DNA from: Escherichia coli
Lineage (GTDB): Bacteria; Pseudomonadota; Gammaproteobacteria; Enterobacterales; Enterobacteriaceae
Assembly: GCF_003790525.1 (NCBI RefSeq)
Contig: NZ_CP033635.1
DNA length: 64,000 bases
Direction: 5' to 3' (one strand)
How positions within the stretch are numbered: position 1 is the first letter of the stretch; each line of letters begins with the position of its first letter. Shown piece after piece: positions 23,373 to 46,165 of the stretch. The position numbers and the translations under genes were made by a program. Below the pieces are notes generated by a model. It saw nothing but the letters and a program-made list of their open reading frames with translations. It was not told the origin of the DNA and searched no databases.

Positions 23373-23376
23373 GGTT

Positions 23377-24356: not shown

Positions 24357-24439
24357 GCGTGTGAGATTGCACAATATATAAAAGTTATGCTATCTGGATT
24401 CATTTGTAGAACGACCATACAACATTCGAGGAGAGCGTA

Positions 24440-25225: not shown

Positions 25226-25296
25226 ACCTCTAAATATTGAGCGACCAGCACGGCCGCTCAATGCTTAATTGCGCATCAGCCTCTGCCTTGATAAAA

Positions 25297-27155: not shown

Positions 27156-27169
27156 GGTGTTTACTCCGT

Positions 27170-27948: not shown

Positions 27949-27951
27949 GCG

Positions 27952-28155
27952 TTACTCCCACAGATTGACAGTTTCAGCCACGGGCGCGGTCTGAACGTCG
28001 GGCAGTTCGACGGCGGTGCCATGTGGCAGCACCGCACCCAGTTCAGCCAGTCCCGGATTTGCGACGAGCACGGTCTCAACCACGCCCTCAGTGCGCCCGT
28101 AATACCGGACACAAATGGCGTCGAGCGTGTCGCCCTGTAGCGCAAAGGTCTTCAT
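27952..28155 (-). CDS. X: Tail protein X
   Basis: 67 aa from MKTFALQGDTLDAICVRYYGRTEGVVETVL...; P2 gpX length. Confidence 0.85.
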   Translation of the reverse strand: MKTFALQGDTLDAICVRYYGRTEGVVETVLVANPGLAELGAVLPHGTAVELPDVQTAPVAETVNLWE

Positions 28156-28664: not shown

Positions 28665-28763
28665 GACTACCTCTGAAAAGTCGGGCGGTGGACGCCGGTG
28701 CAATGTCAGGTAATTCACCCTCACTGACCGGCGTGCCGCCCTGGCGCGGGGCGCATTCGGTTG

Positions 28764-29507: not shown

Positions 29508-29510
29508 CGG

Positions 29511-30584
29511 TCACGCTCCCGGCTCTGCGGTCGCCCTGGCCGGTGTGGAGAAATCACCGACCTTAATTTTTTCCACCAGACAACCGGCGGCGTAGTCTTC
29601 CACCACGTAATCAATGTTCATTGACTCGTAGTTCTCCACGCGGTCGAGTTTCGGGTTTTCCACAATCACGCGGCGATGGCTGTCATCCATGTAGTAGATG
29701 GACAGGTTTTCCAGCTTCGTGATGAGCATCGCATCCGCCGGGAAGTACGGGACGCGTACCGCTGGCAGGTTGCCGATGCGTTTCTGGCTGATGATGACGT
29801 CAGCGGCCAGCATTTCGCTGTTGTCCTGCTCCTTGTTGACGATGGGAAAATACTTGTCCGCCAGTAGCTGACGTCCCACAATCACCACAAGGTCAGGGTC
29901 TTCCTGATACCACGGCTCAATCAGGTTGTTGGTCGCATCCATCACCAGTGCATCAAGGCTGGCATAATCACCGCCCTTACCCACGCGGATGACCTCAGAG
30001 GTGGTGTGCCCTTCCTCGTCAGTGACCTTGCTCATCACGCGCGCCGGGGCTTCATTGCGGTATTTCTGCAGCCAGCCGACCGCCACATCCTGCAGCATCG
30101 GATTGCTGCTGCGGTCAGAGGTTTCGGCACGCTTCACGCCGTTAAAACCGGCCATGATGAAATCAAGGGACTGGCGTTTGATAATGGCGTTACGGACACG
30201 GAGCTGGAAATCCTGATAACGCGCCCACAGGTCCAGCGTTTTGTAGCGGATATAAAAATCGAAGTTAATCTGGTCGCATTCGTACTTGTTTGACGCCAGC
30301 TTCGAGAAGTCCTTCGGCTGACGCTCGGTGCCACCGGCGGTGTCGGTGGTGCTGGCGATGGAGCCGGTGACACCAATACCAATTTTTTCCCCTTTCATTT
30401 CGCTGACCGGCACAATGTTGATGCGGGTCAGAAAGTCAGAGGACTCCTGCATGGTGTTCATCAGGGTCTGGGTGACCGACGGTTCAACGGTGAATTTTTT
30501 CGACACATCACCGGCGTCGATGCCGTTCAGTTCGGCAACACGGGACAGGTAGGCATTAAATTTAAAGCGGGTTTCCTGGCGCAT
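29511..30584 (-). CDS. N: Major capsid protein N
   Basis: 357 aa, P2 gpN length and position. Confidence 0.9.
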   Translation of the reverse strand: MRQETRFKFNAYLSRVAELNGIDAGDVSKKFTVEPSVTQTLMNTMQESSDFLTRINIVPVSEMKGEKIGIGVTGSIASTTDTAGGTERQPKDFSKLASNKYECDQINFDFYIRYKTLDLWARYQDFQLRVRNAIIKRQSLDFIMAGFNGVKRAETSDRSSNPMLQDVAVGWLQKYRNEAPARVMSKVTDEEGHTTSEVIRVGKGGDYASLDALVMDATNNLIEPWYQEDPDLVVIVGRQLLADKYFPIVNKEQDNSEMLAADVIISQKRIGNLPAVRVPYFPADAMLITKLENLSIYYMDDSHRRVIVENPKLDRVENYESMNIDYVVEDYAAGCLVEKIKVGDFSTPARATAEPGA

Positions 30585-30642
30585 AGTTTTTCCTGAAATT
30601 AAGGGTTAATCGTGAAGGTTTTCCCGGACTGACTGACGCCGG

Positions 30643-31497
30643 TCAGCAGTTCGTCATCAGGGCGTCACCGCCACCGCCGGTGGCTTTGCTGCGGCGCTGC
30701 TGGGTCAGACTTTCGGTGTGGTCGAGACTGTTTTTCAGGCGGGTGAATGCCTGACTGGTTTCATCCGCCCTGTCAGTCACATCCTGCTTAAGTGCGGAAA
30801 AGGCGGTTTCCATCTCAGCAAGGCGCTGCTCAGTGGCGCTCAGTTTTTCCTGCACATGCTCAGCGACAGCGGTCACCGCTTCATGCACGTCATTCAGACG
30901 GGCGTCATCGCTGGCCTGTTTGCGGCCAAAAATGGATTTCACCTTTTCGGTCAGGGCGGTGAACACGGTTTCAGGCAGGTCTTCAAATTCCAGCTCAACG
31001 GGCGTTGCCACTGAAATCAGGTTTTCAGGGCTTAATTTGAAGCGGTTCAGGGGGTTGTGTTTTGCCGTGCGGCAGAATTCCAGATATTCCGTGCCGAGGC
31101 TTGCCGGGTCATCGGTGACGGCCAGACCCACCAGATAACATTTGCCGGTGTTGGCAAAGTTCGGCTGAATTTCCATTGAGGTGTAGACCTTCTGTGCGGC
31201 CTTGTTCATCGCGATAAGGTCATCGGTCGGGGTGATTTTCGCAAACAGCGCCCATTTGCCTTTCAGCGCCGAATCATCGTCAATCTTTTCGGCCTTCAGT
31301 TCGACCACATCGCCATAACGTTTAAAAATGCCGTCAGGCAGGATGCCTCGCAGATGTTCCAGGTTAATACGGCAACCATAGACACGCGGGTCAAAGGTTT
31401 CCGCCATTTCCTGAATATCCTGCGCACTGATGACACGCCCGTCACAGGTGTCACCCTCAACGCCGATACGAAAGAATTTTGAGACTTTTTTTGCCAT
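30643..31497 (-). CDS. O: Capsid scaffolding protein O
   Basis: 284 aa from MAKKVSKFFRIGVEGDTCDGRVISAQDIQEMAETF...; P2 gpO length. Confidence 0.85.
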   Translation of the reverse strand: MAKKVSKFFRIGVEGDTCDGRVISAQDIQEMAETFDPRVYGCRINLEHLRGILPDGIFKRYGDVVELKAEKIDDDSALKGKWALFAKITPTDDLIAMNKAAQKVYTSMEIQPNFANTGKCYLVGLAVTDDPASLGTEYLEFCRTAKHNPLNRFKLSPENLISVATPVELEFEDLPETVFTALTEKVKSIFGRKQASDDARLNDVHEAVTAVAEHVQEKLSATEQRLAEMETAFSALKQDVTDRADETSQAFTRLKNSLDHTESLTQQRRSKATGGGGDALMTNC

Positions 31498-31670
31498 TGT
31501 CAGGAGTCCTGAATAGTGATTAGAGGAGTCACATGTCGGCATCAGTTTCCCGACGATGCGCATCCTCCGCCATCAGTCCCGGATGGCTTATCACTGACAC
31601 AACAGCACCTTAGCGAATCGCGGGGCGCGACTCAGTAGCCTTGCCGTGTATTCATCACGGCGAGGTATTC

Positions 31671-33443
31671 ATGACCATCACCACAGACACCACTCTTTTA
31701 CACGACCCGCGTCGTCAGGCGGCGCTGCTGTACTGGCAGGGGTTTTCCGTGCCGCAGATTGCCGCCATGTTGCAGATGAAACGCCCGACGGTGCAGAGCT
31801 GGAAACAGCGCGACGGCTGGGACAGCGTTGCCCCCATCAGCCGTGTCGAAATGAGTCTGGAAGCGCGGCTGACCCAGCTCATCATCAAACCGCAGAAAAC
31901 CGGCGGTGACTTCAAGGAAATTGACCTGCTGGGACGCCAGATTGAACGACTGGCACGGGTCAACCGCTACAGTCAGACCGGCAACGAGGCAGACCTTAAT
32001 CCGAACATCGCTAACCGCAACAAAGGCGGGCGGCGCAAACCGAAAAAGAATTTTTTCAGCGACGAAGCCATCGAAAAGCTGGAGCAGATTTTCTTTGAGC
32101 AGTCTTTCGACTATCAGTTGCACTGGTATCGCGCCGGGCTTGAGCACCGCATCCGCGATATCCTGAAATCCCGCCAGATTGGCGCAACGTTTTATTTTTC
32201 CCGCGAGGCGCTGCTGCGTGCCCTGAAAACCGGTCATAACCAGATTTTTCTGTCGGCCAGTAAAACGCAGGCGTATGTGTTCCGCGAATACATCATCGCC
32301 TTTGCCCGGCTGGTTGACGTTGACCTGACCGGTGACCCGATTGTCCTGGGCAATAACGGCGCAAAACTGATTTTTCTCGGCACCAACTCCAACACCGCGC
32401 AGAGCCATAACGGCGACCTGTACGTCGACGAGATTTTCTGGATCCCGAATTTTCAGGTACTGCGTAAGGTGGCATCAGGTATGGCCTCACAGAGTCACCT
32501 GCGCTCGACCTATTTCTCCACCCCGTCCACGCTGGCGCACGACGCCTACCCGTTCTGGTCGGGTGAACTGTTTAACCGGGGACGCGCCAGCGCCGCCGAA
32601 CGCGTGGAAATCGACGTCAGTCATAACGCCCTTGCCGGTGGGCTTCTCTGTGCGGACGGCCAGTGGCGGCAGATTGTCACCATTGAGGACGCCCTGAAAG
32701 GCGGCTGCACGCTGTTCGACATTGAGCAGCTCAAACGCGAAAACAGCGCCGACGATTTTAAAAACCTGTTCATGTGTGAATTTGTTGACGACAAGGCGTC
32801 GGTATTCCCGTTCGAGGAGCTGCAACGCTGCATGGTCGACACGCTGGAAGAATGGGAAGACTATGCGCCGTTTGCCGCCAATCCGTTCGGCTCCCGCCCG
32901 GTATGGATTGGTTACGACCCGTCACACCGTGGCGACAGCGCCGGATGCGTGGTGCTGGCACCGCCGGTGGTGGCCGGAGGTAAATTCAGAATACTTGAGC
33001 GTCACCAGTGGAAAGGCATGGACTTTGCCACTCAGGCGGAATCCATCCGCAAACTCACCGAAAAATACAACGTCGAATACATCGGAATTGATGCCACCGG
33101 CCTCGGTGTCGGCGTGTTCCAGCTCGTGCGCTCGTTCTATCCCGCCGCGCGCGATATCCGCTACACGCCGGAAATGAAAACCGCAATGGTGCTCAAGGCA
33201 AAAGACGTCATCCGCCGTGGCTGTCTGGAATATGACGTCAGCGCCACCGACATCACCAGCTCGTTCATGGCTATCCGCAAGACCATGACCAGCAGCGGAC
33301 GCAGCGCCACCTATGAGGCCAGCCGTAGCGAGGAAGCCAGCCACGCCGACCTCGCCTGGGCGACCATGCACGCCCTGTTAAATGAGCCACTCACCGCCGG
33401 TATCAGCACCCCGCTGACATCCACCATTCTGGAGTTTTACTGA
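31671..33443 (+). CDS. P: Terminase large (ATPase) subunit P
   Basis: 590 aa from ATG 31671 (MTITTDTTLLHDPRRQAALLYWQGFSVPQIAAM...); ORF-track start at 31641 is a TTG extension. Confidence 0.85.
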   Translation: MTITTDTTLLHDPRRQAALLYWQGFSVPQIAAMLQMKRPTVQSWKQRDGWDSVAPISRVEMSLEARLTQLIIKPQKTGGDFKEIDLLGRQIERLARVNRYSQTGNEADLNPNIANRNKGGRRKPKKNFFSDEAIEKLEQIFFEQSFDYQLHWYRAGLEHRIRDILKSRQIGATFYFSREALLRALKTGHNQIFLSASKTQAYVFREYIIAFARLVDVDLTGDPIVLGNNGAKLIFLGTNSNTAQSHNGDLYVDEIFWIPNFQVLRKVASGMASQSHLRSTYFSTPSTLAHDAYPFWSGELFNRGRASAAERVEIDVSHNALAGGLLCADGQWRQIVTIEDALKGGCTLFDIEQLKRENSADDFKNLFMCEFVDDKASVFPFEELQRCMVDTLEEWEDYAPFAANPFGSRPVWIGYDPSHRGDSAGCVVLAPPVVAGGKFRILERHQWKGMDFATQAESIRKLTEKYNVEYIGIDATGLGVGVFQLVRSFYPAARDIRYTPEMKTAMVLKAKDVIRRGCLEYDVSATDITSSFMAIRKTMTSSGRSATYEASRSEEASHADLAWATMHALLNEPLTAGISTPLTSTILEFY

Positions 33444-34477
33444 TGAGCAAGAAAAAAGGGAAAACACCGCAACCTGCGGCAAAAAAAATGACCGCCAGCG
33501 CCCCGAAAATGGAGGCATTCACCTTTGGTGAGCCGGTGCCGGTACTCGACCGCCGTGACATTCTGGATTACGTCGAGTGCATCAGTAACGGCAGATGGTA
33601 TGAGCCACCAGTCAGCTTTACCGGTCTGGCAAAAAGCCTGCGTGCTGCCGTGCATCACAGCTCACCGATTTACGTCAAACGTAACATTCTGGCCTCAACG
33701 TTTATCCCACACCCGTGGCTTTCTCAGCAGGATTTCAGCCGCTTTGTGCTGGATTTTCTGGTATTCGGTAATGCGTTTCTGGAAAAGCGTTACAGCACCA
33801 CCGGTAAGGTCATCAGACTGGAAACCTCACCGGCAAAATATACCCGCCGTGGCGTGGAGGAGGATGTTTACTGGTGGGTGCCGTCCTTCAACGAGCCGAC
33901 ACCTTTCGCGCCCGGCTCCGTGTTTCACCTGCTGGAGCCGGATATTAATCAGGAGCTGTACGGTCTGCCGGAATATCTCAGCGCCCTTAACTCTGCCTGG
34001 CTGAATGAGTCGGCCACGCTGTTCCGCCGCAAGTATTACGAAAACGGCGCTCATGCCGGATATATCATGTACGTCACTGATGCCGTGCAGGATCGCAACG
34101 ATATCGAAATGCTTCGCGAAAACATGGTGAAGTCGAAAGGCCGCAACAACTTTAAAAACCTGTTTCTCTATGCCCCGCAGGGGAAAGCTGACGGCATTAA
34201 AATTATCCCGCTCAGTGAAGTGGCAACGAAGGACGATTTTTTTAATATCAAAAAAGCCAGCGCCGCTGACCTGCTGGACGCGCACCGCATCCCCTTTCAG
34301 TTGATGGGCGGCAAGCCGGAGAACGTCGGGTCGCTGGGTGATATTGAGAAAGTAGCAAAGGTCTTTGTCCGCAATGAGCTTATCCCGTTACAGGACAGGA
34401 TCCGCGAGATAAACGGCTGGCTCGGTCAGGAGGTCATCCGATTTAAAAACTACTCACTGGACACTGACAACGGCTGA
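33443..34477 (+). CDS. Q: Portal protein Q
   Basis: 344 aa; start overlaps the P stop (TGATG); P2 gpQ length. Confidence 0.9.
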   Translation: MSKKKGKTPQPAAKKMTASAPKMEAFTFGEPVPVLDRRDILDYVECISNGRWYEPPVSFTGLAKSLRAAVHHSSPIYVKRNILASTFIPHPWLSQQDFSRFVLDFLVFGNAFLEKRYSTTGKVIRLETSPAKYTRRGVEEDVYWWVPSFNEPTPFAPGSVFHLLEPDINQELYGLPEYLSALNSAWLNESATLFRRKYYENGAHAGYIMYVTDAVQDRNDIEMLRENMVKSKGRNNFKNLFLYAPQGKADGIKIIPLSEVATKDDFFNIKKASAADLLDAHRIPFQLMGGKPENVGSLGDIEKVAKVFVRNELIPLQDRIREINGWLGQEVIRFKNYSLDTDNG

Positions 34478-34482
34478 ACATC

Positions 34483-34504
34483 GCCGCCTGCGGGCGGCTT
34501 TTTT
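34483..34504 (+). terminator. Rho-independent terminator after Q
   Basis: Hairpin gccgcctgcgggcggc followed by tttttt. Confidence 0.7.
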
Positions 34505-34646
34505 ACACCCCGTCATCACGCCCTCACACGTTCGCCACTGTACAAAACACCCCGCAGACACACCAACGCCCCGGCAGGCCGACTAAACGCCATCACGACG
34601 CGCTCAGACGCTGAAAAAATAAAATCAGCACCACCGCCAGCGCGCA

Positions 34647-34665
34647 GTGCTTTCCCCGCCTCGCC
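34647..34665 (-). other. cos site (19-nt cohesive end)
   Basis: Reverse complement of gtgctttccccgcctcgcc is GGCGAGGCGGGGAAAGCAC, matching the P2 cohesive-end sequence as recalled; lies between Q and the cargo locus as in P2. Confidence 0.7.
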
Positions 34666-34892
34666 CGCCCGCTTCATGGGTCGGTTTTGATGCAATTCCA
34701 AAAGCCGTCCAAACTCTCTTAGGCTAAATGTCCAACGAGAAAATAGTTCTTTGAATGTGAATGCATTTTAATGCAGAGTTATGCCCAGCATTTTTGTACA
34801 CTTCGATGTATCAAATGCGCTGCAAACGATCAAATATGGATGTTTTATCAAGCATCCCCCAAAAGATATTTACATCATCCCATGAGGTTAAG

Positions 34893-35966
34893 ATGGATAA
34901 CAAAATCGTAGAAATTGAGACAAATAAGCTTGATTTTGACCCTAAAAACCCACGTTTCTTTCGTCTCAATGATGCCAGTAACGCTGCAACAGTCATTGAG
35001 GAAATGTTAGATGACGAAAGTGTCCACGATCTAATGCTATCAATCGGTCAGCAAGGTTACTTTCCTGGAGAACCTTTATTGGCAGTAAAAAGCAATGGAA
35101 ACTACATCGTGGTTGAGGGAAACAGACGCTTAGCTGCTGTAAAGTTGCTCAATGGAGATCTGCTTCCTCCAAAAAGAAAACTTAAAGGTGTGCAAGAAAT
35201 CATTGATGATACTACCAATAAACCTAAGAAGCTTCCCTGCATCATTTATGAAAACCGAGAGGATGTACTGAGATATATCGGTTATCGTCATATAACTGGG
35301 GTCAAAGAATGGGACTCATTATCTAAAGCCAAATACCTTAAAGAGTTATGTGATACTTTTTATTCACATGAGCCTAAAGAGATAGTATTAAAAAATCTGG
35401 CTCGTGAGATTGGGAGTAAACCACATTATGTTGCAACACTTCTCACTGCACTGAACTTATATGAAGTCGCGCATGACCATGAGTTTTTTAATTTACCCAT
35501 GAAGGCTTCTGACGTGGAATTTTCATATATAACCACAGCTTTGGGATATTCAAAAATCACAAACTGGTTAGGTCTACAGGATAAAAAGGATTTTTTAGAC
35601 CCAAATTTAAATGAAGAAAACCTTAAGCGTTTATTCTCTTGGTTTTTTGTGCCTGACCAACAAGGTAGAACCATCATCGGTGAGTCTCGAAGAATAAAAG
35701 ATATTGCAGCAGTGGTTGAGAAACCCGAAGCAATTGAAATTCTCATGAAAAGTTCAAACTTGGATGAAGCATATCTATATACCAGCGGAGAAAGAGAAGC
35801 ATTAGATAAAGCACTAAACGCAGCTAGTGTTAAATTAAGAGTAGTTTGGGATATGCTACTTAAAGCTAAAGAATTAACATTAGAGCATGAAGAGGCTGCA
35901 TCTGAAATTTTTGAGATGTCAAAAAATATTAGAAATCAGATCAGAAGCAAAAGGGAGGATGATTGA
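34893..35966 (+). CDS. ParB/Srx-like N-terminal domain protein (cargo gene 1 at the old/tin position)
   Basis: 357 aa from ATG 34893 (RBS gagg upstream); ParB-box-like motifs LDFDPKNPRF and IVVEGNRRLAAVKLL; AT-rich. Confidence 0.7.
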   Translation: MDNKIVEIETNKLDFDPKNPRFFRLNDASNAATVIEEMLDDESVHDLMLSIGQQGYFPGEPLLAVKSNGNYIVVEGNRRLAAVKLLNGDLLPPKRKLKGVQEIIDDTTNKPKKLPCIIYENREDVLRYIGYRHITGVKEWDSLSKAKYLKELCDTFYSHEPKEIVLKNLAREIGSKPHYVATLLTALNLYEVAHDHEFFNLPMKASDVEFSYITTALGYSKITNWLGLQDKKDFLDPNLNEENLKRLFSWFFVPDQQGRTIIGESRRIKDIAAVVEKPEAIEILMKSSNLDEAYLYTSGEREALDKALNAASVKLRVVWDMLLKAKELTLEHEEAASEIFEMSKNIRNQIRSKREDD

Positions 35967-35970
35967 GATT

Positions 35971-36996
35971 ATGATTACAAATCTTGATTCAATGCCTTCT
36001 AATGAGCCTTATTTATGGGCTGATTATATTGAGATATTGGCCTTAACTAATATCGACAGGTCATTCAGTCGAGGAGACCTATATAGCACACTGCAAGCTC
36101 AACCCGAAGCAGTACTAGCTGAAACAGATGAAGCAGAAGAAGAGGGCGTTTATGATGTTGATGATGAAAATGATACGCCTGTACGCAAGAGAACAAAACG
36201 AAGTGTTAGTCGAGCATATACTGACAGAAAGTGGAGCTATGCGATAGGCTTCATACGACAACGCATTGATTTATTTGGGGATAGTTACCCTTTTACTTTA
36301 TCAGAAGACAACGATACTGTAGAGTTACGTGATATATCAGAAAAGCCACTGGAACATTTAGAAAGACTATATTTAGCTTTACTAATCTGTGCTAACATAA
36401 AATATGTCAACATAATGAGCAGAAGAGAGATAACGCGCAGTTTTGAACTAATTAGTTTACCTATTTTTGAAAGCCTAATGCCTAGCGGTAGCATAATAAA
36501 AGCATGCTGGGCTTCTGGTGGTCAAGCGGCCCCTTACACTGGAACTCTATATAATAAATTTAAGAGTATTGCTTCCGATATCCGTTGCACAGCGAACTTC
36601 AAAGAACGAGATTTCAGTCGAGGAAATAGTGGTGACGGAGGCCTTGACATAATTGCCTGGCATCCAATGGGAGATCAACGAGATGCCATCCCTATTTCTT
36701 TTGTTCAGTGTGGCTGTTCTCAAGAAGAGTGGGAAGCGAAGCAGCTTGAGGCCTCACCTGCGATGCTCTACAGTAAATTCCCCGTAGCTCACCGATGGGC
36801 AACTTATTATTTCTTACCTCAAGATCTACGATGGATAGATGGTGAGTGGGCGCATAAAAATAAGTTAGGCGATGCTATTTTTGTTGATCGCCTAAGATTA
36901 ATCAATTTAACCAGAGCATCTGATAATATTGATCACAGTCAAAATATTAGCTATCTAGATATCATCCTTGATCCTTCCAGCGCGATCGCTGCTTAA
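35971..36996 (+). CDS. Hypothetical protein, possible PD-(D/E)xK-type nuclease (cargo gene 2)
   Basis: 341 aa; starts 4 nt after gene 1 (alternative ATG 35959 overlaps its stop); contains GDGGLDIIAW ... ISFVQCGCSQEEWEAK, resembling an Mrr-type catalytic core but lacking the canonical QCK lysine. Confidence 0.6.
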   Translation: MITNLDSMPSNEPYLWADYIEILALTNIDRSFSRGDLYSTLQAQPEAVLAETDEAEEEGVYDVDDENDTPVRKRTKRSVSRAYTDRKWSYAIGFIRQRIDLFGDSYPFTLSEDNDTVELRDISEKPLEHLERLYLALLICANIKYVNIMSRREITRSFELISLPIFESLMPSGSIIKACWASGGQAAPYTGTLYNKFKSIASDIRCTANFKERDFSRGNSGDGGLDIIAWHPMGDQRDAIPISFVQCGCSQEEWEAKQLEASPAMLYSKFPVAHRWATYYFLPQDLRWIDGEWAHKNKLGDAIFVDRLRLINLTRASDNIDHSQNISYLDIILDPSSAIAA

Positions 36997-37931
36997 TCCC
37001 ATAAATCTGGAAGGTTTCTAGCAACCGCCTCAAACAATGGAGGCGGTACTGCATTACCTACCACAGTATATTTCATATTAATAGAAGCCCGTTCAGTTTC
37101 TGGGAAAATTAAATCCCCAAAACCTTGTAAAATAGCAGCCTCTCGATAGCTAAACCTACGAGCTGGTGCATCCGAAGTAAATTGCCACTTATCAGGTCCC
37201 AATTTTTCTAATGTTGGACTTATTGGATGTAGAGGCATATGTCTAGGATTTGCAACAATTGTTTTAGATATCTGATCCCAATCTTGCCTACGGTTTCGCG
37301 ATAGATAATACCAATGAAAATCGGCGTCATAAAACTCGCCAACAGGCCAAACAGGCATATGCCCAATAGCATCACGAATTGTGGAATATGGTGTCAAACC
37401 ATCACCATGTGTTGGTTTTGGAAATTTGTATGTAATACCGTAGTCCTTTCGTATTCCTACGATAAAGATTCGCTTCCTATCTTGGGATACCCCATAATGG
37501 GACGCATTCAGAATTTGCGAGCTTACTGTATAACCTGCTTCTTCGAAAACTTTGAATTGATCCTTTAATAAATGCTCAAAGTTACGCCTTACCATACCAG
37601 AGACATTCTCTACAATGAATGCTTTTGGCTTAATTTTACTCAAAGCACGGGCAAACTCTAAATATAGTGTATTAATCTTTCTATCTGCCTTCCTTGCCCC
37701 ACCTTGACTAAATCCTTGGCAAGGATAGCATCCGATGAGCAACTCAGCAGAAGGGAACGACTGGAGCCCTGAGATATCGCCCAAAATGTAGTCAGTTTCA
37801 GGATGGTTTTCTAAGTAAACGTCCCTTGCGTAAGGCAAAATATCATTTGCCATAAGCACATTGAAACCTGCGTTCAAAACTCCCGCATCAGAACCACCAC
37901 ATCCAGAAAAAAGTGAAACTACAGTTGGCAT
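36993..37931 (-). CDS. DNA cytosine-5 methyltransferase, HaeIII/HhaI-type small m5C MTase (cargo gene 3)
   Basis: 312 aa with motif I FSGCGG, motif IV PCQGFS, motif VI ENV, motif VIII QDRKR, motif X GNAVPPPL, plus YYLSRNRRQDW resembling the M.HaeIII variable region; convergent with gene 2 (4-bp overlap). Confidence 0.85.
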   Translation of the reverse strand: MPTVVSLFSGCGGSDAGVLNAGFNVLMANDILPYARDVYLENHPETDYILGDISGLQSFPSAELLIGCYPCQGFSQGGARKADRKINTLYLEFARALSKIKPKAFIVENVSGMVRRNFEHLLKDQFKVFEEAGYTVSSQILNASHYGVSQDRKRIFIVGIRKDYGITYKFPKPTHGDGLTPYSTIRDAIGHMPVWPVGEFYDADFHWYYLSRNRRQDWDQISKTIVANPRHMPLHPISPTLEKLGPDKWQFTSDAPARRFSYREAAILQGFGDLIFPETERASINMKYTVVGNAVPPPLFEAVARNLPDLWD

Positions 37932-38173
37932 TGACCCCTCCTAAAAACCGACCGCGTATTATAGCGAAACACCCCGTTGGGAAAAGCTAGATTTTGCCAA
38001 GTCTTGATATTCTCACGTTTTAGTAGTTGTGGCCATCTTTAACGAGAAAAAGATAAAATTGACTTCTCATTAATTTTCAATAGGTTTAATTGTAAGCTCA
38101 AACTAACGCCTCGCGACACTCGTTATTCAACCCCGCCAGCCCTGAAAACAAGTTTCACGACTGGCGGCGTTCT

Positions 38174-38323
38174 CTATCGTCTGCGTTGTGGTGGCGCAAC
38201 TCTGGACTGACCGATATGGTTAAACCGCCCGTAATTATCCCGGACTATTTCGGCACACCCGACCAGCTCATCGGGCGTCAGATTTTCGTTGACCATAATC
38301 CGCTGTAAACGCTGAACAATAGC
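38174..38323 (-). CDS. Small hypothetical ORF downstream of the orf91-position gene
   Basis: About 49 aa from MAIVQRLQRIMVNENLTPDELVGCAEIVRDNYGRF...; start and reality uncertain. Confidence 0.3.
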   Translation of the reverse strand, partial: AIVQRLQRIMVNENLTPDELVGCAEIVRDNYGRFNHIGQSRVAPPQRRR

Positions 38324-38379
38324 CATCAGCTTGATATTTTTAGTTTTATGGTGCGGTATCTCGCCTGGTATTCTGTGCA

Positions 38380-38832
38380 TTATCCAAGCCACCCGTTTTG
38401 CTGTGCACGCTCCATCTGTTCATCTGAATAGTTCCATGCTCCATCCGTGGCAACCATTGCCCCGCCAGACATCCCCGTCTCTGGTTCATACATAACAGCA
38501 AGGCCGAGCTGATGCATAATTTCATGATTAATTCTGAATACCAGGCCACGCTCACTAAGTTCTTTCCAGTTCACAATCTCATATGCGCCTGTATTAAGCA
38601 GCTCAATACTTAGCAAGACATAATCTTCCAGCCAGTCTGACAGGTCAGTAACATCTGTTATCCGGGCTTCAACATTTCGCCCCGTATACACACCCTGCAC
38701 CCATTCATACAAAATCAACGTGTCCCCGCGCTCATAATTACGGTCATTTTTCCGGAACTCTGCACGTTTCTTTCCTTCCAGCACAAGGTCGAAATATTTT
38801 GCGTGCAGCTTTACCTCGTGAATTTTTGCCAT
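38380..38832 (-). CDS. ASCH/DUF3850-like protein at the orf91 position
   Basis: 150 aa from MAKIHEVKLHAKYFDLVLEGKKRAEFRKNDRNYERGDTLILYEW...; start overlaps the A stop by one nucleotide. Confidence 0.6.
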   Translation of the reverse strand: MAKIHEVKLHAKYFDLVLEGKKRAEFRKNDRNYERGDTLILYEWVQGVYTGRNVEARITDVTDLSDWLEDYVLLSIELLNTGAYEIVNWKELSERGLVFRINHEIMHQLGLAVMYEPETGMSGGAMVATDGAWNYSDEQMERAQQNGWLG

Positions 38833-41117
38833 TATGTCCACTCCATTACTGTTGAGAATCCCGGCCACTCATCAGCGACCGGATACGTGAATTTTTTCCC
38901 GTCATAATTTACGGTCGCGCCACGCGCCAGCGCCTCAAGCTCCCATCGCTGCGGCCTGATACCGTTCTGAGCAAGGTCAACGCGGATACGGGTAATTTGC
39001 GTTCGTTCCGACCGGGTCAGTCTGGCCGATGGCGCTATTTCATGTGGTTTTAACGGGCTTCCGTTTCTCTGCTGACGATTTGGTGTTCTCAGTTCGTGTT
39101 TTAATGCACCTCTGAGCGCCCTCACGACCTCTGGCTCATTCCATTCGATAACACCGTCATCAACCAGATTAAGCACGGCTGCGGCATGTTCATAAGGTGT
39201 GGGAGCCGGTAACGAAGTATCACTGCCGGTGAGCTTTCCACAGTTATTGACAGGACTCCGAGGCGCGGCGATGCCGCTTTTTAAAGTCAAAGGCTCAACG
39301 ACCGGAACTTTCGGCACAATGCGCCAGTCCGTCGTTCTGGTGATATGAATATGACGCGCGCCGAGATGCGGCGCGTAAATACCGACCACTCTCTCGACTT
39401 CTTCCTCGTACTCGTTAACGTCACTCGACGGGCTACGGGCAACCCTGACAGTCTGACAATCGCGCGGGACATTTGCCCCACCCTGCGCGCTGATATACAA
39501 CGCAAAATCACCACTGTCTGCGGCAGCGCGAGCAGCCTCGACGCGTTCGTCAAACTCATCAGCAATACTGACGCCGCGAGGTAATTTGCGTAGTTCACGG
39601 TAAGCCCCCATTGTCGGTAGGCCAACCGTTTTAAATTGCGGAATGCGCCACGTTGACGCCCATGCGGTAACAGCCGCGGCAGTGTCTTTCAGCGGCCTGC
39701 CGGTATCGTTATCGAGCTGACCATCCAGTGCATAGCCGTCGATGTTTTTTGAAATGTATTTCGCGATATACCCCGCAGCACCGCCCCGATTAAGGTGTTT
39801 TGCCTGAAAACGGTTTCGCGCGGCTCCTCTTTCGTCGCCATCCTCTTTGAGCGCATAGCGACGCATGATTTCGATAATCTGGTTACGCTGGCGCGAATTA
39901 CAAAAAAGCATCATATGCCAGTGCGGCGTTCCGTCGTGGTGTGGCTCGACGACACGCAAACCGTAGACCTGTAAATCATTATCCTTGAATGCCGTGCGCA
40001 TCAGGCTCCAGATACGGCAGAGATAACGCTGCGCATCCTTTGGATTAAATGCCTCATCGTTCCAGCCGTGATTAAGCTGCACGGTTTTACTTTCGCCTTT
40101 TCCTACCTGACGTGTCGGGTGATACTTTGACGGCGCGGTCAGCGTGATAAACATCCCCACATCACCCTCTGCAGCGGCGTAACGCTCAATACCGGCAATG
40201 GTGTTCATCAGCTCCATCCGGCGAATTTCAGGATTAGAAATACTGCCCATCACCTTACTGATAAGGTCGATGCGCTCGCCGGTTTCCCTGTTTTCAAGGT
40301 CACACGATTTAAGAAATTCCAGATTTGCCTGGCGGCGCGCACGCACATCACGAATGGCATGTTTACTGGCATAAGGTGAACGGTCTTTATTGACCTCCCC
40401 GACAGCAATCAGTAACGCCTCATGCCAGCGCATACGCTGGCCTTTAAGCTGTCTAATCCACCACTCATCGTTAAACAGGCGGGCAATGGCAGAATATGCC
40501 TGCCTCGTGGTCATCTGCCCTTTACGGTATTTTCTCCAGTACAGCGGGGAAATATTGAAAGCACGTGCAGCGCCAGCAACATGACCATACAGGTGAGCCT
40601 GCGCCTCATCCGTAAACAGCGATTCTTTTTCGCCATGGGCATCCACCCAGGCATCGCAGAGTTCCTCATACATCATGAAAAGCTGCGATGAGATACGGGC
40701 GGCAAACTTTTTCAGCTCCTTGTCATTCATTCCCGGCAGGCGCGCATAGTGGTCACGCTCTGCCAGAAACAGCAACGACGCGTCGGTGTTCATTTCATGG
40801 CGCTGATTCACACGCTCAATGCGCGGCCATAAACGACGCTGAAAAGTGGATGTGAGGAAATAAAACCCGTGCACCGGGCTTTTATTGCGCCGGATGTAGT
40901 CATAGCGTGAAGTAAACAGCGAGCGCAAAAAGTAAGGCAGGCGGTTAATCGTGGATAAAACACCTTGCACCTGACGCATCTCATCACGTGTAAGGGGTCT
41001 TTCGCGCCCGACGGCCTCGCGTGGCGCGTTCCATGCATAAGCACCGGTAAACATCTTACCGGTGCCTGCGGCAAATGCTGACGGAGGGACAAAACGCCCG
41101 GAGGCTTTAACGGCCAT
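38832..41117 (-). CDS. A: Replication initiation protein A (rolling-circle nicking endonuclease)
   Basis: 761 aa from MAVKASGRFVPPSAFAAGTGKMF...; P2 gpA length. Confidence 0.85.
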   Translation of the reverse strand: MAVKASGRFVPPSAFAAGTGKMFTGAYAWNAPREAVGRERPLTRDEMRQVQGVLSTINRLPYFLRSLFTSRYDYIRRNKSPVHGFYFLTSTFQRRLWPRIERVNQRHEMNTDASLLFLAERDHYARLPGMNDKELKKFAARISSQLFMMYEELCDAWVDAHGEKESLFTDEAQAHLYGHVAGAARAFNISPLYWRKYRKGQMTTRQAYSAIARLFNDEWWIRQLKGQRMRWHEALLIAVGEVNKDRSPYASKHAIRDVRARRQANLEFLKSCDLENRETGERIDLISKVMGSISNPEIRRMELMNTIAGIERYAAAEGDVGMFITLTAPSKYHPTRQVGKGESKTVQLNHGWNDEAFNPKDAQRYLCRIWSLMRTAFKDNDLQVYGLRVVEPHHDGTPHWHMMLFCNSRQRNQIIEIMRRYALKEDGDERGAARNRFQAKHLNRGGAAGYIAKYISKNIDGYALDGQLDNDTGRPLKDTAAAVTAWASTWRIPQFKTVGLPTMGAYRELRKLPRGVSIADEFDERVEAARAAADSGDFALYISAQGGANVPRDCQTVRVARSPSSDVNEYEEEVERVVGIYAPHLGARHIHITRTTDWRIVPKVPVVEPLTLKSGIAAPRSPVNNCGKLTGSDTSLPAPTPYEHAAAVLNLVDDGVIEWNEPEVVRALRGALKHELRTPNRQQRNGSPLKPHEIAPSARLTRSERTQITRIRVDLAQNGIRPQRWELEALARGATVNYDGKKFTYPVADEWPGFSTVMEWT

Positions 41118-41382
41118 ATGAGCCAAAAGCCTCTGAACAACGCCTGCTGAGTTGCTCAACCTGCGCGTTTAAATCAGCAAAAGACTTTGCGCTTCCGGTC
41201 AGAATATCGTGATGCATCAGGCCGGAAACGAGCTGGCTTAATTTCGGGTAATAACCAACCACCGCCAGCCATTCCTGACCGGCGTTTTTACCGCTTTCAG
41301 CTCTCTTTTTCTCGTGGAGAATAAACTGAAAGCTGTCACTGGTAACGACATAACGTTCGCCAATTTCAATACGAATACTCAT
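41107..41382 (-). CDS. P2 orf83-like small protein
   Basis: 91 aa ORF in the conserved early-operon position, tightly packed with neighbours. Confidence 0.6.
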   Translation of the reverse strand: MSIRIEIGERYVVTSDSFQFILHEKKRAESGKNAGQEWLAVVGYYPKLSQLVSGLMHHDILTGSAKSFADLNAQVEQLSRRCSEAFGSYGR

Positions 41383-41603
41383 GCCGTTCTCCGGTAATGT
41401 TTGTTTTTTGCTTCAAAGACTGACTGACAGGAAACACAACGCGTGGCTGACGGATAAGCCGCACGACGGGCAGCAGGTATTGGCGCGTCACACTCTTCGC
41501 AAACCAGCGCAGAAGCACCGCAATGTTTTACCCTTGCCGCGTTAATCTGGCGCTCCAGTAATTCAGCCTGTTGTTCCTGAATAAAATCTACGTTGTCCGG
41601 CAT
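41379..41603 (-). CDS. TraR/DksA-family zinc-finger protein (P2 orf82-like)
   Basis: 74 aa with four-Cys arrangement CEECDAPIP...CVSCQ. Confidence 0.65.
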   Translation of the reverse strand: MPDNVDFIQEQQAELLERQINAARVKHCGASALVCEECDAPIPAARRAAYPSATRCVSCQSVFEAKNKHYRRTA

Positions 41604-41908
41604 TACCAGTTCCTTTTGTCGTTAAGGTTTTTAAATTCATCAGCGCAATAGCTGGCGATTTCTGTCGTTAATTTCGTCAGTTCATCCACGGAGGAGATTT
41701 GCTTGTGAAACACAGCGCGTTTAACAAGTAAATTGACCACATCAGACAGGAGGTTTAATTCGTTCTGATAAATCGCGATAACAGACTCAGTTATTTCGCG
41801 TTTTTCTTTATCAAGACCAAGTTGAATAAGAGACAAATCGCCATTTTTCATAACGGCGATTTTTAGGGCGTTATTCAGTAATACAACTGAACGAGAACAG
41901 GACATCAA
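41603..41908 (-). CDS. P2 orf81-like small protein
   Basis: 101 aa ORF, positional. Confidence 0.55.
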
Positions 41909-42129
41909 AGCACCTCCCCGCGAGACAATCCGATATTGTGAAATTTTTCCGACTCCTGACTGAGCAGCTCGACTATCTCCACGCGGGATAACTCCGCCTT
42001 TGTGATGTGGCGAATCATGGCGTCAAGATGAGAAGAAAAGCGCGTCGCTGCGTCGGCCTGTGCTTCGGTTCTGGCCTGTTGCAGCAGTAATGCGTATTTA
42101 CCGCACTGATTTTCAGAAACTGTATGCAT
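41905..42129 (-). CDS. P2 orf80-like small protein
   Basis: 74 aa ORF, positional. Confidence 0.5.
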
Positions 42130-42192
42130 GACTTTCTCCAGGCAAAAAGAAGCCCCGCACGATTAAGTGCGTTAAAAACTCTGGTTAATTAC

Positions 42193-42693
42193 TTAATGCA
42201 GATATTGCTCTGGTTTTACCGACGTCAGAATTGTCGGTGCATACTCAAACAGGCTGAATAATTCACGTAATGCACGGAATAAAGCATCACGCCAGTAACA
42301 TGATTCTTCATTAATTCGCCAGTATGGCTGGTTGAATTCTTTTTCAGTCAGTCGTGCGTGCATAAATAAAGTGCGACGCTGACTGACTGTTAAAAAACTA
42401 ATATATGCATACTCACTTGCGCCAACCTGACGGCGTTTTGAGAATGCGCCACGCAATTCATCAATTGCACAAACCAGTCGTTCACGTTCGACGTCGTTCA
42501 TTTCTTCAAAACGCATCGTTGCGTGACGCTGTTTTAACTGTGCATGAAAGCAAACCGTTAGCCGTTCGCGCTCCATCATCTGATTATAATAATCACATGT
42601 ATCCTGCCAGCGAGGGACGGCAAGATGCTTGCCAATTATCCGGCGCATAGCTGCTGGCTGTTTTTCAACGAGATTAAGCGTCATCACTGTCAT
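42193..42693 (-). CDS. B: Replication protein B (helicase loader)
   Basis: 166 aa, P2 gpB length and position. Confidence 0.8.
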   Translation of the reverse strand: MTVMTLNLVEKQPAAMRRIIGKHLAVPRWQDTCDYYNQMMERERLTVCFHAQLKQRHATMRFEEMNDVERERLVCAIDELRGAFSKRRQVGASEYAYISFLTVSQRRTLFMHARLTEKEFNQPYWRINEESCYWRDALFRALRELFSLFEYAPTILTSVKPEQYLH

Positions 42694-42887
42694 TTCCAGC
42701 CCCTCCGGCTTTTCAGAAAGGTCAGAGCCTTTTTTAACGGACTCTGTTTTTTGGTGCGGATAATGATTCCCTTACGCCCCTTACCGTGGGTGATGGTGAA
42801 GTCAATCGCCCTGGGGCTTTCGTTACGCAGTAACTGAGCAATACAACGCGGTTCACTCATAATCACAACCCCATCCACAAAAGCCAT
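42690..42887 (-). CDS. P2 orf78-like small protein
   Basis: 65 aa ORF between cox and B. Confidence 0.5.
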   Translation of the reverse strand: MAFVDGVVIMSEPRCIAQLLRNESPRAIDFTITHGKGRKGIIIRTKKQSPLKKALTFLKSRRGWK

Positions 42888-43135
42888 GCATCACGCTGTT
42901 CAACTGGTCGGTTATAAAACGCCTCTCGTACAGCGCGATTAAACTCTGGAATGAAAACCCACTTCTCACCGACACGAGCGTTCGGCTTACTTGGATCACG
43001 AAGCTCAATAACTGGCAACTTATTCTCTTTTACCATCTTGACTACAGCCGTTTCTGGCTTACCAAGTAACTCTGCAAACTTAACCGTATGTACCGCATCA
43101 ATCGGGTACTGAATCACATAGTCATTGACTTCCAT
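42863..43135 (-). CDS. cox: Cox-like excisionase / early-promoter repressor
   Basis: 90 aa; first gene of the early operon, divergent from C; P2 Cox is about 91 aa. Confidence 0.7.
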   Translation of the reverse strand: MEVNDYVIQYPIDAVHTVKFAELLGKPETAVVKMVKENKLPVIELRDPSKPNARVGEKWVFIPEFNRAVREAFYNRPVEQRDAWLLWMGL

Positions 43136-43287
43136 TGATTAGCCCTTTTTGCTTTCGTGTTACCCTTATTAGATCCAGTCCCTTCTAGGTCGCACCTGTC
43201 CTTTCTAGGGACTGGCTAACACACTCAAAAGGTCACCAATACACAACCTTTTGACGGGAATATAAGTCACCAATAGGTTACTGTCAA
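43136..43287. promoter_or_regulatory. Immunity switch region (divergent C and cox promoters with operator repeats)
   Basis: Intergenic region between divergent C and cox; direct repeats ccagtcccttctagg (43175..43189) and cctgtcctttctaggg (43195..43210). Confidence 0.6.
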
Positions 43288-43581
43288 ATGCAGACATTCG
43301 AAAAACTGAAAGCGATTAGGAAAGCAGAAGGCTTAACACAGGCGAAATTCAGCGAAATTAGCGGGATAGCTCTAGGAACAGTCAAAAATTACGAAAGTGG
43401 GCATAAAGACCCTGGTCTCAGCATCGTTATGCGAGTCACAAATACGCCTTTATTTAAAAAATATACGCTCTGGTTAATGACTGGTGATACGTCACCACAA
43501 GCTGGTCAGATCGCGCCGGCTCTCGCACACATTGGGCAAAAACCAACAGAATCAGACCACTCCGAAAAACAGACTGGTTAA
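43288..43581 (+). CDS. C: Immunity repressor C (HTH)
   Basis: 97 aa, MQTFEKLKAIRKAEGLTQAKFSEISGIALGTVKNYESG...; HTH_XRE-like. Confidence 0.8.
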   Translation: MQTFEKLKAIRKAEGLTQAKFSEISGIALGTVKNYESGHKDPGLSIVMRVTNTPLFKKYTLWLMTGDTSPQAGQIAPALAHIGQKPTESDHSEKQTG

Positions 43582-43650
43582 CACTCTATAAACATTACAT
43601 TTTCACCATTTGTTACCAAGATGGTGAATACAGCGTCAGAGGGCTTTCTT

Positions 43651-44631
43651 ATGTCAATTAAGAAGCTCGATGATGGACGCTATGAAGTGGACATTAGACC
43701 TCGCGGTCGCGACGGAAAACGCATCCGCAGGAAATTTGAAAGAAAAGCTGAGGCTGTAGCATTTGAGCGATACACAATCGCCTACGCCAGCCAGAAAGAA
43801 TGGGCAGGTCAGCGAGCAGATCGCAGAACTTTGAGTGAGTTGCTGAACATCTGGTGGAAATATCACGGGCAAAACCACGAGCATGGAACAAAAGAGTTTA
43901 ATCATCTGCTCAAAACCATCAGCGGCATAGGTGATATACCAGTGAGCCGGATGAGCAAAAGAGCTTTGATGGATTATCGTTCCATGCGACTACGTGATGG
44001 TATCAGTGCCGCAACGATAAACCGTGACATGTACCGATTATCCGGCATGTTCACAAAATTAATTCAATTGGATGAATTTTCCGGGCAACACCCAATTCAC
44101 GGACTGCCGCCACTGGCGGAGGCCAACCCTGAAATGACGTTCCTGGAAAAAGCAGAAATCGAAAAACTGTTAAATGTTTTGGATGGTGATGACTTACTTG
44201 TCGCACTTTTATGTCTGAGCACTGGAGGAAGATGGACGGAAGTTGCCACGCTAAAACCAGCACAGATTACAAATTGCAGGGTTACCTTCCTGAAAACCAA
44301 AAACGGTAAAAAGCGAACCGTGCCGATTTCTGAGGAACTGGAGAAAAAAGTTAAAGAGGAGGCCAGCGCTAAATTATTCAAAGTTGATTATGAGAAGTTT
44401 TGCGGGATTTTACGCAGAGTGAAGCCAGATATACCACCCAATCAGGCAACCCACATCCTGCGGCATACATTCGCAAGCCATTTCATGATGAATGGGGGCA
44501 ATATAATCGCACTGCAACAGATTCTGGGACATGCGAGCATTCAGCAGACGATGGCCTATGCGCACCTTGCGCCTGACTACCTGCAAAATGCCGTCGCGCT
44601 GAATCCTCTAAAAGGCGGAGTGACGTTATAA
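43651..44631 (+). CDS. int: Tyrosine integrase
   Basis: 326 aa from MSIKKLDDGRYEVDIRPRGRDGKRIRRKF...; C-terminal catalytic region ...HILRHTFASHFMMNGGNIIALQQILGHASIQQTMAYAHL; ORF-track start at 43621 is a 10-codon extension. Confidence 0.85.
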   Translation: MSIKKLDDGRYEVDIRPRGRDGKRIRRKFERKAEAVAFERYTIAYASQKEWAGQRADRRTLSELLNIWWKYHGQNHEHGTKEFNHLLKTISGIGDIPVSRMSKRALMDYRSMRLRDGISAATINRDMYRLSGMFTKLIQLDEFSGQHPIHGLPPLAEANPEMTFLEKAEIEKLLNVLDGDDLLVALLCLSTGGRWTEVATLKPAQITNCRVTFLKTKNGKKRTVPISEELEKKVKEEASAKLFKVDYEKFCGILRRVKPDIPPNQATHILRHTFASHFMMNGGNIIALQQILGHASIQQTMAYAHLAPDYLQNAVALNPLKGGVTL

Positions 44632-44645
44632 ATTTCCCTTCTGAG

Positions 44646-44664
44646 TGTCCACATAGTGTCCACA
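44646..44664. promoter_or_regulatory. Putative integrase arm-type binding sites, right arm
   Basis: tgtccacatagtgtccaca, matching the left-arm copy at 9841..9860. Confidence 0.5.
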
Positions 44665-44746
44665 CTCTCAGAACTTTGTAGCCCTTCCAGTCCCTTATAG
44701 GTTTTCTTAAGTTACTGTTTTCTTACGGAAACCGATGTAAGTGATT

Positions 44747-44793
44747 GATAAAAAAAACCCCCACATCATGTGGGGGAAGACAGGGATGGTGTC
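44747..44793. repeat. attR core, identical to attL; carries the cpxP/CpxQ terminator hairpin
   Basis: 47-bp identity with 9746..9792; contains cccccacat-c-atgtggggg next to an A/T run. Confidence 0.85.
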
Positions 44794-44812
44794 TATGGCA
44801 AGGAAAACAGGG
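44750..44812 (-). ncRNA. cpxQ: CpxQ sRNA (processed cpxP 3'UTR) with intrinsic terminator
   Basis: Minus-strand sequence ...uuuuccuugccauagacaccaucccugucuucccccacaugaugugggggUUUUUUUU immediately downstream of the cpxP stop; matches CpxQ as recalled. The 5' end is approximate. Confidence 0.6.
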
Positions 44813-44816
44813 TTTA

Positions 44817-45317
44817 CTACTGGGAACGTGAGTTGCTACTACTCAATAGCTTCAACGATGAACTTTTTTGCCATTGCGTCACGTCGCGCAACTGCTCCAT
44901 TCGTTGTTGATGTTTCTCGTTTAAAACCGCTTGCTGCTCCGGCGTTAACAGGCGATACATTTGGTTGCGGACTTTTGCCATCTCAACCTGACGAGCAATT
45001 TGCTCATTCGCCATTTTTTCTGCCTGTGCGCGCACAGCGTTTTCATCAAAATTTTCTGCGGTGACAAGGCGATGCATTGTCTCCAGTTCGCTAACATTAA
45101 CAGGAGGCTGTTCGTGCCGGGCCTGTTGCATAAGATCTCGCATCTGCTGACGCTGATGTTCGGTTAAACTTATGCCGTCGAACATATGGCTCTGCGTACT
45201 GCGCTGCGTAAGTTCTTCACCCGGATGCCAGTTATCGCCTGAACCGACTTCAGCAGCGTGGCTTAATGAACTGACTGCCAGCGTTGAGGCCATGACGGCA
45301 GCGGTAACTATGCGCAT
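44817..45317 (-). CDS. cpxP: Periplasmic stress adaptor/inhibitor CpxP
   Basis: 166 aa, [34 protein letters not shown]...; LTXXQ motifs. Confidence 0.9.
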
Positions 45318-45396
45318 CATTTGCTCCCAAAATCTTTCTGTCGCGATTCAACGATAGAGAGTTTACGATTCAGGCTGCAAACATGCGTCAGGGGGT

Positions 45397-45411
45397 GTAA
45401 AACAACGTAAA
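45397..45411. promoter_or_regulatory. CpxR box in the divergent cpxP-cpxRA promoter region
   Basis: Perfect GTAAA-N5-GTAAA (gtaaaacaacgtaaa). Confidence 0.7.
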
Positions 45412-45466
45412 GTCATGGATTAGCGACGTCTGATGACGTAATTTCTGCCTCGGAGGTATTTAAACA

Positions 45467-46165
45467 ATGAATAAAATCCTGTTAGTTGATGATGACCGAG
45501 AGCTGACTTCCCTATTAAAGGAGCTGCTCGAGATGGAAGGCTTCAACGTGATTGTTGCCCACGATGGGGAACAGGCGCTTGATCTTCTGGACGACAGCAT
45601 TGATTTACTTTTGCTTGATGTAATGATGCCGAAGAAAAATGGTATCGACACATTAAAAGCACTTCGCCAGACACACCAGACGCCTGTCATTATGTTGACG
45701 GCGCGCGGCAGTGAACTTGATCGCGTTCTCGGCCTTGAGCTGGGCGCAGATGACTATCTCCCGAAACCGTTTAATGATCGTGAGCTGGTGGCACGTATTC
45801 GCGCGATCCTGCGCCGTTCGCACTGGAGCGAGCAACAGCAAAACAACGACAACGGTTCACCGACACTGGAAGTTGATGCCTTAGTGCTGAATCCAGGCCG
45901 TCAGGAAGCCAGCTTCGACGGGCAAACGCTGGAGTTAACCGGCACTGAGTTTACCCTGCTCTATTTGCTGGCACAGCATCTGGGTCAGGTGGTTTCCCGT
46001 GAGCATTTAAGCCAGGAAGTGCTGGGCAAACGCCTGACGCCTTTCGACCGCGCTATTGATATGCACATTTCCAACCTGCGTCGTAAACTGCCGGATCGTA
46101 AAGATGGTCATCCGTGGTTTAAAACCTTGCGTGGTCGCGGCTATCTGATGGTTTCTGCTTCATGA
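45467..46165 (+). CDS. cpxR: Envelope-stress response regulator (OmpR family)
   Basis: 232 aa, MNKILLVDDDRELTSLLKELLEMEGFNV... Confidence 0.95.
   Translation: MNKILLVDDDRELTSLLKELLEMEGFNVIVAHDGEQALDLLDDSIDLLLLDVMMPKKNGIDTLKALRQTHQTPVIMLTARGSELDRVLGLELGADDYLPKPFNDRELVARIRAILRRSHWSEQQQNNDNGSPTLEVDALVLNPGRQEASFDGQTLELTGTEFTLLYLLAQHLGQVVSREHLSQEVLGKRLTPFDRAIDMHISNLRRKLPDRKDGHPWFKTLRGRGYLMVSAS

Follow-up and report, generated by a model that had tools for sequence, protein, structure and literature searches.

A TraR-family C4 zinc-finger protein encoded in the early operon of an Escherichia coli P2-type prophage is identical to phage P2 Orf82

Does a short cysteine-rich reading frame in a phage-like operon of Escherichia coli encode a protein acting on host RNA polymerase (RNAP), and to which branch of the TraR/DksA-type proteins does it belong? 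We analysed a stretch of 64,000 nucleotides (NCBI RefSeq assembly GCF_003790525.1, contig NZ_CP033635.1), hereafter the window. The initial annotation had read a 74-aa protein of the early operon as TraR/DksA-type on account of its four-Cys pattern, had pointed out that such phage proteins can reprogram host transcription, and had proposed a zinc-finger profile search and an rRNA promoter assay as checks. The reading frame proves to be orf82 of a prophage of the P2 type (Peduovirus), and we consider it very probable that its product is a TraR-branch RNAP-binding regulator redirecting host transcription.

The reading frame is borne out at exact coordinates (Table 1) as an ATG-to-stop ORF of 74 codons in the ORF list, with the stop included; its strand, left unstated in the initial annotation, is the minus strand. 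The four-Cys pattern is present as a single CxxC-x17-CxxC arrangement, C35-E-E-C38 ... C56-V-S-C59, the four cysteines of which are predicted zinc ligands, as judged from the sequence; Orf82 has five cysteines, C28 lying outside the motif. The absence of any zinc-finger family match, named in the initial annotation as the refuting outcome, did not occur: the profile search returned matches above threshold for two zinc-finger family models, taking the gathering threshold for Pfam and the curated or equivalog cut-offs for NCBIfam. Pfam PF01258 (zf-dskA_traR) scores 43.6 bits (cut-off 24.9, E=3e-11) over Orf82 residues 34-64, corresponding to profile positions 5-35 of 36, and NCBIfam TIGR02419, defined as 'phage/conjugal plasmid C-4 type zinc finger protein, TraR family', scores 78.3 bits (cut-off 59.7, E=4.7e-22) over residues 3-64, covering profile positions 1-64 of 64. 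PHROG 54 (phrog_54, 'DksA-like zinc-finger protein') matches Orf82 end to end (residues 1-73, E=1.5e-32). The Cys pattern and these family matches far exceed chance.

Three more specific assignments were rejected, i.e. the F-plasmid TraR equivalog (NF010268; 43.2 bits with a cut-off of 108), DksA proper (TIGR02420 and NF033459; 20.0 with a cut-off of 115.5 and 27.7 with a cut-off of 105 bits, respectively, for a protein of 74 aa) and the YbiI-type DksA/TraR proteins (NF008243; 47.1 bits with a cut-off of 96). As these NCBIfam equivalog cut-offs are not reached, Orf82 is a phage member of the short TraR subfamily and an orthologue of none of DksA, F-plasmid TraR and YbiI.

An alignment of ten sequences, comprising Orf82, the F-type TraR translated from the traR gene of a plasmid record, and eight homologs from Eganvirus, Felsduovirus, Kapieceevirus and unclassified Peduoviridae, shows which residues are conserved. 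The eight Peduoviridae homologs, from four lineages, are 43-50% identical to Orf82, and D3, D6, R46, R47, C35, C38, C56 and C59 are invariant across all ten sequences. R46/R47 are the equivalents of TraR R48/R49, a pair contacting the rim helices and beta' Si3 (PMC9239242), and the acidic residues lie in the N-terminal sequence M-P-D3-N-V-D6; substitution of D3/D6 impairs the function of both TraR and lambda Orf73 (PMC9239242). The DxxDxA motif of TraR is imperfect in Orf82, position 8 being Ile instead of Ala. Among the eight divergent homologs this position is Ala in four and Val in four, with Ile in the P2-type proteins; residue 8 therefore varies within the Peduoviridae sampled, and an imperfect DxxDxA motif is common in this phage family. 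According to the authors defining the motif, A8 is highly conserved but no requirement for assignment to the TraR family, and they noted the 'missing A8 in Orf82' for a protein that is active all the same, with a higher IC50 (PMC9239242). As a separate observation, the residue of TraR aligned with C28 is a His. For lambda Orf73, its additional Cys residues were suggested as a possible cause of the failure to activate the promoters tested (PMC9239242).

The best sequence matches of Orf82 in the PDB are the TraR chains of RNAP complexes, 5w1s_M (E=8.9e-10) and 6n57_M (~1e-9), followed by YbiI and, weakly, DksA. An AlphaFold model computed from the ten-sequence alignment has a helix at residues 3-28, a Cys-bearing core and a second helix at residues 57-72, at moderate model confidence (pLDDT 69, pTM 0.37). 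A Foldseek search of the PDB with this model ranks TraR from the RNAP complex first (6n57_M, E=1.5e-4, prob 1.00, TM 0.49/0.51) and TraR 5w1s_M second, and then DksA, YbiI, DksA2 and chlamydial Dks; superposition on TraR gives a large rmsd of ~12 A, so the helix packing of the model is not to be trusted. With moderate confidence only, the modelled architecture appears TraR-like, having an N-terminal helix, a zinc-binding globular domain and a C-terminal helix and being devoid of the DksA coiled coil.

A tblastn search of a phage collection with Orf82 matched 166 records, many of them, including phage P2 (AF063097.1, orf82), at 100% over all 74 residues. The protein is identical to P2 Orf82 (AAD03304.1; AF063097.1, 27548-27772) in 74/74 residues and the gene in 224/225 nucleotides, the single base difference being synonymous, and the neighbours orf81 and orf83, the operon order and the overlapping junctions are the same as in P2. 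The possibilities of a chance ORF and of a decaying pseudogene were rejected on the grounds of this protein identity and the single synonymous difference. Megablast of window positions 41000-43200 gives matches of ~98% identity to P2-type phages; the immunity and cargo regions differ from P2, tin/old being absent and the accessory genes being different ones. At a nucleotide identity of at least 95%, orf82 is found in 1602 of 5426 complete E. coli genomes (~30%). In E. coli SMS-3-5 (NC_010498.1), which differs from window positions 7064..45564 at 2 of 38,501 positions, RefSeq names the product 'TraR/DksA C4-type zinc finger protein' (WP_001113264.1). The feature is thus already known: the RefSeq annotation is correct, the gene is common in E. 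coli, and the biochemistry was published in 2022.

The complete P2-type prophage occupies 9746..44793 of the window between fieF and cpxP, and a 47-bp direct repeat (GATAAAAAAAACCCCCACATCATGTGGGGGAAGACAGGGATGGTGTC) marks its two ends, at 9746..9792 and 44747..44793. Comparison of the region beside ogr (10800-11800) with 44550-44900 gave no exact shared repeat of at least 12 bases; this is because of an IS4 insertion, the repeat lying further left at 9746-9792. The IS4-family transposase gene lies inside the prophage, and its insertion might have consequences for excision or for the attR arm. The P2 tin/old slot is occupied by two cargo genes. The first encodes a protein with a ParB N-terminal domain matching the PADLOC models PD-Lambda-5_A and PDC-M38A (E ~1e-24) and phrog_3694, the second a 345-aa protein of phrog_3984 with no match in Pfam or PADLOC; the pair may represent an anti-phage system of the PD-Lambda-5 kind, placed in a P2 defence hotspot. 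Directly downstream of gene A, genes for a C-5 cytosine DNA methyltransferase and a DUF3850/ASCH protein take the place of P2 orf91/tin/old; the neighbourhood of the methyltransferase gene yielded no cognate restriction enzyme. Two accessory ORFs occupy further positions (Table 1).

The placement in an early operon is correct as well. The P2 record (AF063097.1) gives the order Pe, cox, orf78, B, a putative terminator, orf80, orf81, orf82, orf83 and A, and the minus strand of the window shows the same gene order from cox through A; orf82 itself is flanked by orf81 and orf83, with cox and B preceding it and A, the last large gene of the operon, following. The integrase gene, like the gene of the C-type repressor, is on the plus strand. 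The orf81 stop TAA shares one base with the orf82 ATG (TAATG at 41603), the orf82 stop overlaps the orf83 ATG (ATGA at 41379-41382), and overlaps of stop and start codons are the rule across this early operon. Given the terminator-like hairpin in the B-orf80 gap, it is uncertain how strongly orf82 is expressed. Two observations concern the neighbouring genes. Orf81 and Orf83 constitute a very divergent duplicated DUF5405 pair bracketing the TraR homolog; pairwise BLASTP gives no alignment between them, though both match the Pfam DUF5405 profile. The orf78-like ORF and the end of cox share 25 nt; P2 orf78 has 56 aa, and within the 65-aa ORF of the window phrog_273 covers residues 10-65 only, the downstream start probably being the true one.

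Table 1. Features of the prophage early operon, of orf82 and of accessory loci in the window
Feature	Position	Strand	Basis or remark
C-type immunity repressor (HTH)	43288..43581	+ (divergent)	Pfam HTH_3; position as P2 gene C
Pe-like early promoter site, strong and sigma-70-like, TTGACA-17-TATATT, 11/12	43259..43287	-	between C repressor gene and cox; position matches P2 Pe
cox, first gene of the operon	42863..43135	-	Pfam Phage_Cox E=9.4e-24
orf78-like ORF, 65 aa	42690..42887	-	RefSeq call alike
Replication gene B	42193..42693	-	size and position as P2 gpB
Terminator-like hairpin in the B-orf80 gap	42156..42171	-	scan; P2 putative rho-independent terminator 26980-27007
orf80 (DUF2732)	41905..42129	-	Pfam, P2 and RefSeq annotation
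orf81 (DUF5405)	41603..41905	-	Pfam E=4.9e-34; P2 and RefSeq annotation
Shine-Dalgarno-like AAGGA, 7 nt 5' of the orf82 ATG, within the orf81 end	41611..41615	-	minus-strand sequence ...ACAAAAGGAACTGGTAATG
orf82, 74-aa TraR-family C4 zinc-finger protein	41379..41603	-	ORF, profiles, identity to AAD03304.1 and WP_001113264.1
N-terminal tip motif D3-N-V-D6-F-I8, orf82 codons 3-8	41580..41597	-	alignment with F-plasmid TraR and 8 Peduoviridae homologs
C28, orf82 codon 28	41520..41522	-	
Zinc ribbon C35xxC38-x17-C56xxC59 including R46/R47, orf82 codons 35-59	41427..41501	-	regex, Cys positions, alignment, Pfam match
orf83 (second, divergent DUF5405 protein)	41107..41382	-	Pfam E=6.7e-13
Replication gene A, rolling-circle initiator	38832..41117	-	Pfam Phage_GPA E=6e-123; RefSeq 'replication endonuclease'; P2 gpA
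DUF3850/ASCH plus DUF7415 protein	38380..38868	-	
C-5 cytosine DNA methyltransferase	36993..37931	-	PF00145 E=1e-61; PADLOC DruM2/MTase_II models
Two cargo genes	34893..36996	+	P2 tin/old slot
261-aa accessory ORF	24440..25225	+	phrog_2407; orf30 position, strand opposite to tail genes; no Pfam or PADLOC match
299-aa accessory ORF	18265..19164	-	phrog_7195; P2 variable slot, Z/fun position; no Pfam or PADLOC match
ogr	about 11343..11561	-	
IS4-family transposase gene	9958..11304	+	between left att repeat and ogr

The proposed RNAP-binding and transcription-reprogramming activity is supported by published data on the identical protein, since P2 Orf82 was one of five phage TraR homologs assayed by Gopalkrishnan and colleagues (mBio 2022; PMC9239242). 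The rRNA promoter assay has thereby already been reported for this exact protein: purified P2 Orf82 inhibited rrnB P1 without ppGpp at an IC50 of 250 nM, roughly 5-fold weaker than TraR with an IC50 of ~50 nM, a difference which, as the authors suggest, may be due partly to the 'missing A8' (PMC9239242). P2 Orf82 competed with DksA for RNAP at half-maximal concentrations of 0.65-1 uM, about equal to TraR, which locates it at the same secondary-channel site, and upon IPTG induction it fully complemented a dksA deletion (PMC9239242). The thrABC and argI promoters were activated by every homolog tested except lambda Orf73, a statement made for the group (PMC9239242), and overexpression of Orf82 stops cell growth according to Liu et al. 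1993 as cited there. That P2 Orf82 is expressed from Pe together with the replication genes fits, in the authors' view, a role in lytic growth (PMC9239242).

Comparison with the characterised relatives defines where Orf82 stands. With F-plasmid TraR (PDB 5W1S, 6N57; WP_001278689.1; 73 aa compared to 74 aa) it has 38-39% identity and shares D3, D6, the CxxC-x17-CxxC arrangement, PIP, the RR pair, the three-element architecture, the residues E64, K68, H69 and Y70 (KHY) of the C-terminal helix and the same activity in vitro (PMC9239242). Orf82 differs in carrying I8 for A8 and the extra Cys28, in a linker before the zinc ribbon that is two residues shorter, and in being encoded in a phage early operon instead of the conjugative tra operon. 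E. coli DksA (PDB 1TJL) and YbiI (PDB 2KGO) have the C4 zinc-finger domain PF01258 in common with Orf82, and DksA also the binding site in the RNAP secondary channel; however, DksA, at 151 aa, contains a long coiled coil and exerts its full effect only with ppGpp, whereas Orf82 has a single N-terminal helix and acts independently of ppGpp.

Functional parallels are offered by lambda Orf73 and VP882 Orf61 (TraR_VP882; gp61, 36% identical to Orf82), which like Orf82 are phage-encoded TraR homologs expressed early in the lytic programme and inhibit rRNA promoters via RNAP binding. Lambda Orf73 has six cysteines compared to five in Orf82 and scarcely activates the promoters tested, and VP882 TraR acts with a partner, QisA, and an inactivator, QtiQ. 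To our knowledge, neither a yield phenotype nor a partner nor an inactivator has been described for Orf82. Lambda Orf73 raises the phage yield 3- to 4-fold depending on D3/D6, which was attributed to inhibition of host promoters (PMC9239242), and by analogy with it Orf82 may benefit P2. A full-text literature search found no phenotype of a P2 orf82 mutant, nor did PMC9239242 or the VP882 preprint contain one, and the physiological role in P2 is therefore drawn by analogy.

These data are consistent with a model according to which, once the C repressor is lifted, Pe would transcribe orf82 along with cox, B, orf80, orf81, orf83 and A, the genes from orf80 to A being expressed by read-through of the B-orf80 hairpin and orf81-orf82-orf83 being translated as a tightly coupled block. 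Orf82 then docks in the secondary channel of host RNAP, as published for the identical protein. By homology to the TraR-RNAP structures, its N-terminal helix is expected to bring D3 and D6 close to the active site and its C-terminal helix to touch the beta lobe at beta Si1, the Zn(Cys)4 globular domain, R46/R47 included, being placed at the channel rim and beta' Si3. This would result in ppGpp-independent inhibition of promoters forming short-lived open complexes, such as those of rRNA and ribosomal-protein genes, while some amino-acid biosynthesis promoters would be stimulated.

Three alternatives have to be weighed against this reading. According to the first, which we regard as improbable, Orf82 acts mainly in complex with Orf81 and/or Orf83, and its solo activity in vitro under- or mis-reports its function. 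Both flanking genes of orf82 belong to one family, DUF5405, and orf81, orf82 and orf83 are joined by the codon overlaps TAATG and ATGA; such overlaps are, however, usual throughout the operon, and the relation of Orf81 and Orf83 to each other is detectable at the profile level only. A precedent comes from VP882, in which gp60 (QisA) overlaps gp61 (TraR) by 4 nt, TraR and QisA co-purify and growth arrest is far stronger with both than with TraR alone, while QtiQ, a third VP882 protein, inactivates the TraR-QisA complex (2026 preprint). No similarity of QisA to either Orf81 or Orf83 was detectable (E at least 6.8), and therefore it is the position of the genes that suggests the partnership. Moreover, in six annotated records of Eganvirus, Felsduovirus, Kapieceevirus and related phages no DUF5405 gene is annotated beside the TraR-like gene, which in these Peduoviridae comes after an Orf80/DUF2732-type gene or a hypothetical protein and is followed by a replication, exonuclease, methylase or unnamed gene; a DUF5405 partner is thus not conserved with the TraR-like gene in this sample. 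The ~5-fold weaker inhibition of rrnB P1 by Orf82 alone despite RNAP binding equal to that of TraR would fit a missing partner, but Orf82 alone complements the dksA deletion and regulates promoters (PMC9239242). Orf81 and Orf83 acting as partners or modulators of the RNAP activity of Orf82, as a non-homologous counterpart of the control by QisA and QtiQ, is by this analogy a candidate arrangement with a slim chance of being correct. If it were true, it would explain TraR-like RNAP binding combined with weaker solo inhibition, and it would constitute a tunable host growth-arrest module in P2 as well as the first function for DUF5405.

Somewhat less probable still is that Orf82 chiefly targets promoters of the phage (Pe/Pc or the late ones depending on Ogr) or the interface of replication and transcription, and not host rRNA promoters. 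The position of orf82 between the replication genes B and A is compatible with this idea, as is the activation of F tra promoters by TraR, and the authors allow for some homologs acting on promoters of the phage that encodes them (PMC9239242). With lambda Orf73, however, the activity of pR, pR' and pL changed little or not at all (1.4-fold at most), and the authors traced the higher yield to host promoters (PMC9239242). That orf82 is a decaying or silent relic of a defective prophage, its Cys pattern having no current function, has a negligible probability, since, although the IS4 element at one prophage end shows at least one insertion to have been suffered, the protein is identical to the active Orf82 of viable phage P2 with its sole base difference synonymous, the full P2 gene set is kept in the prophage, the gene is retained in 1602 of the 5426 complete E. 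coli genomes at the identity given above, and the key residues are retained in homologs of 43-50% identity.

As the preferred reading, Orf82 acting on host RNAP as a TraR-type regulator concerns a phage transcription-reprogramming factor that is already annotated and characterised, and its discovery value is small; yet reading the raw sequence alone sufficed to recognise it correctly. By analogy with lambda Orf73, it is likely that during lytic growth of P2 host transcription would be diverted from ribosome synthesis toward the needs of the phage.
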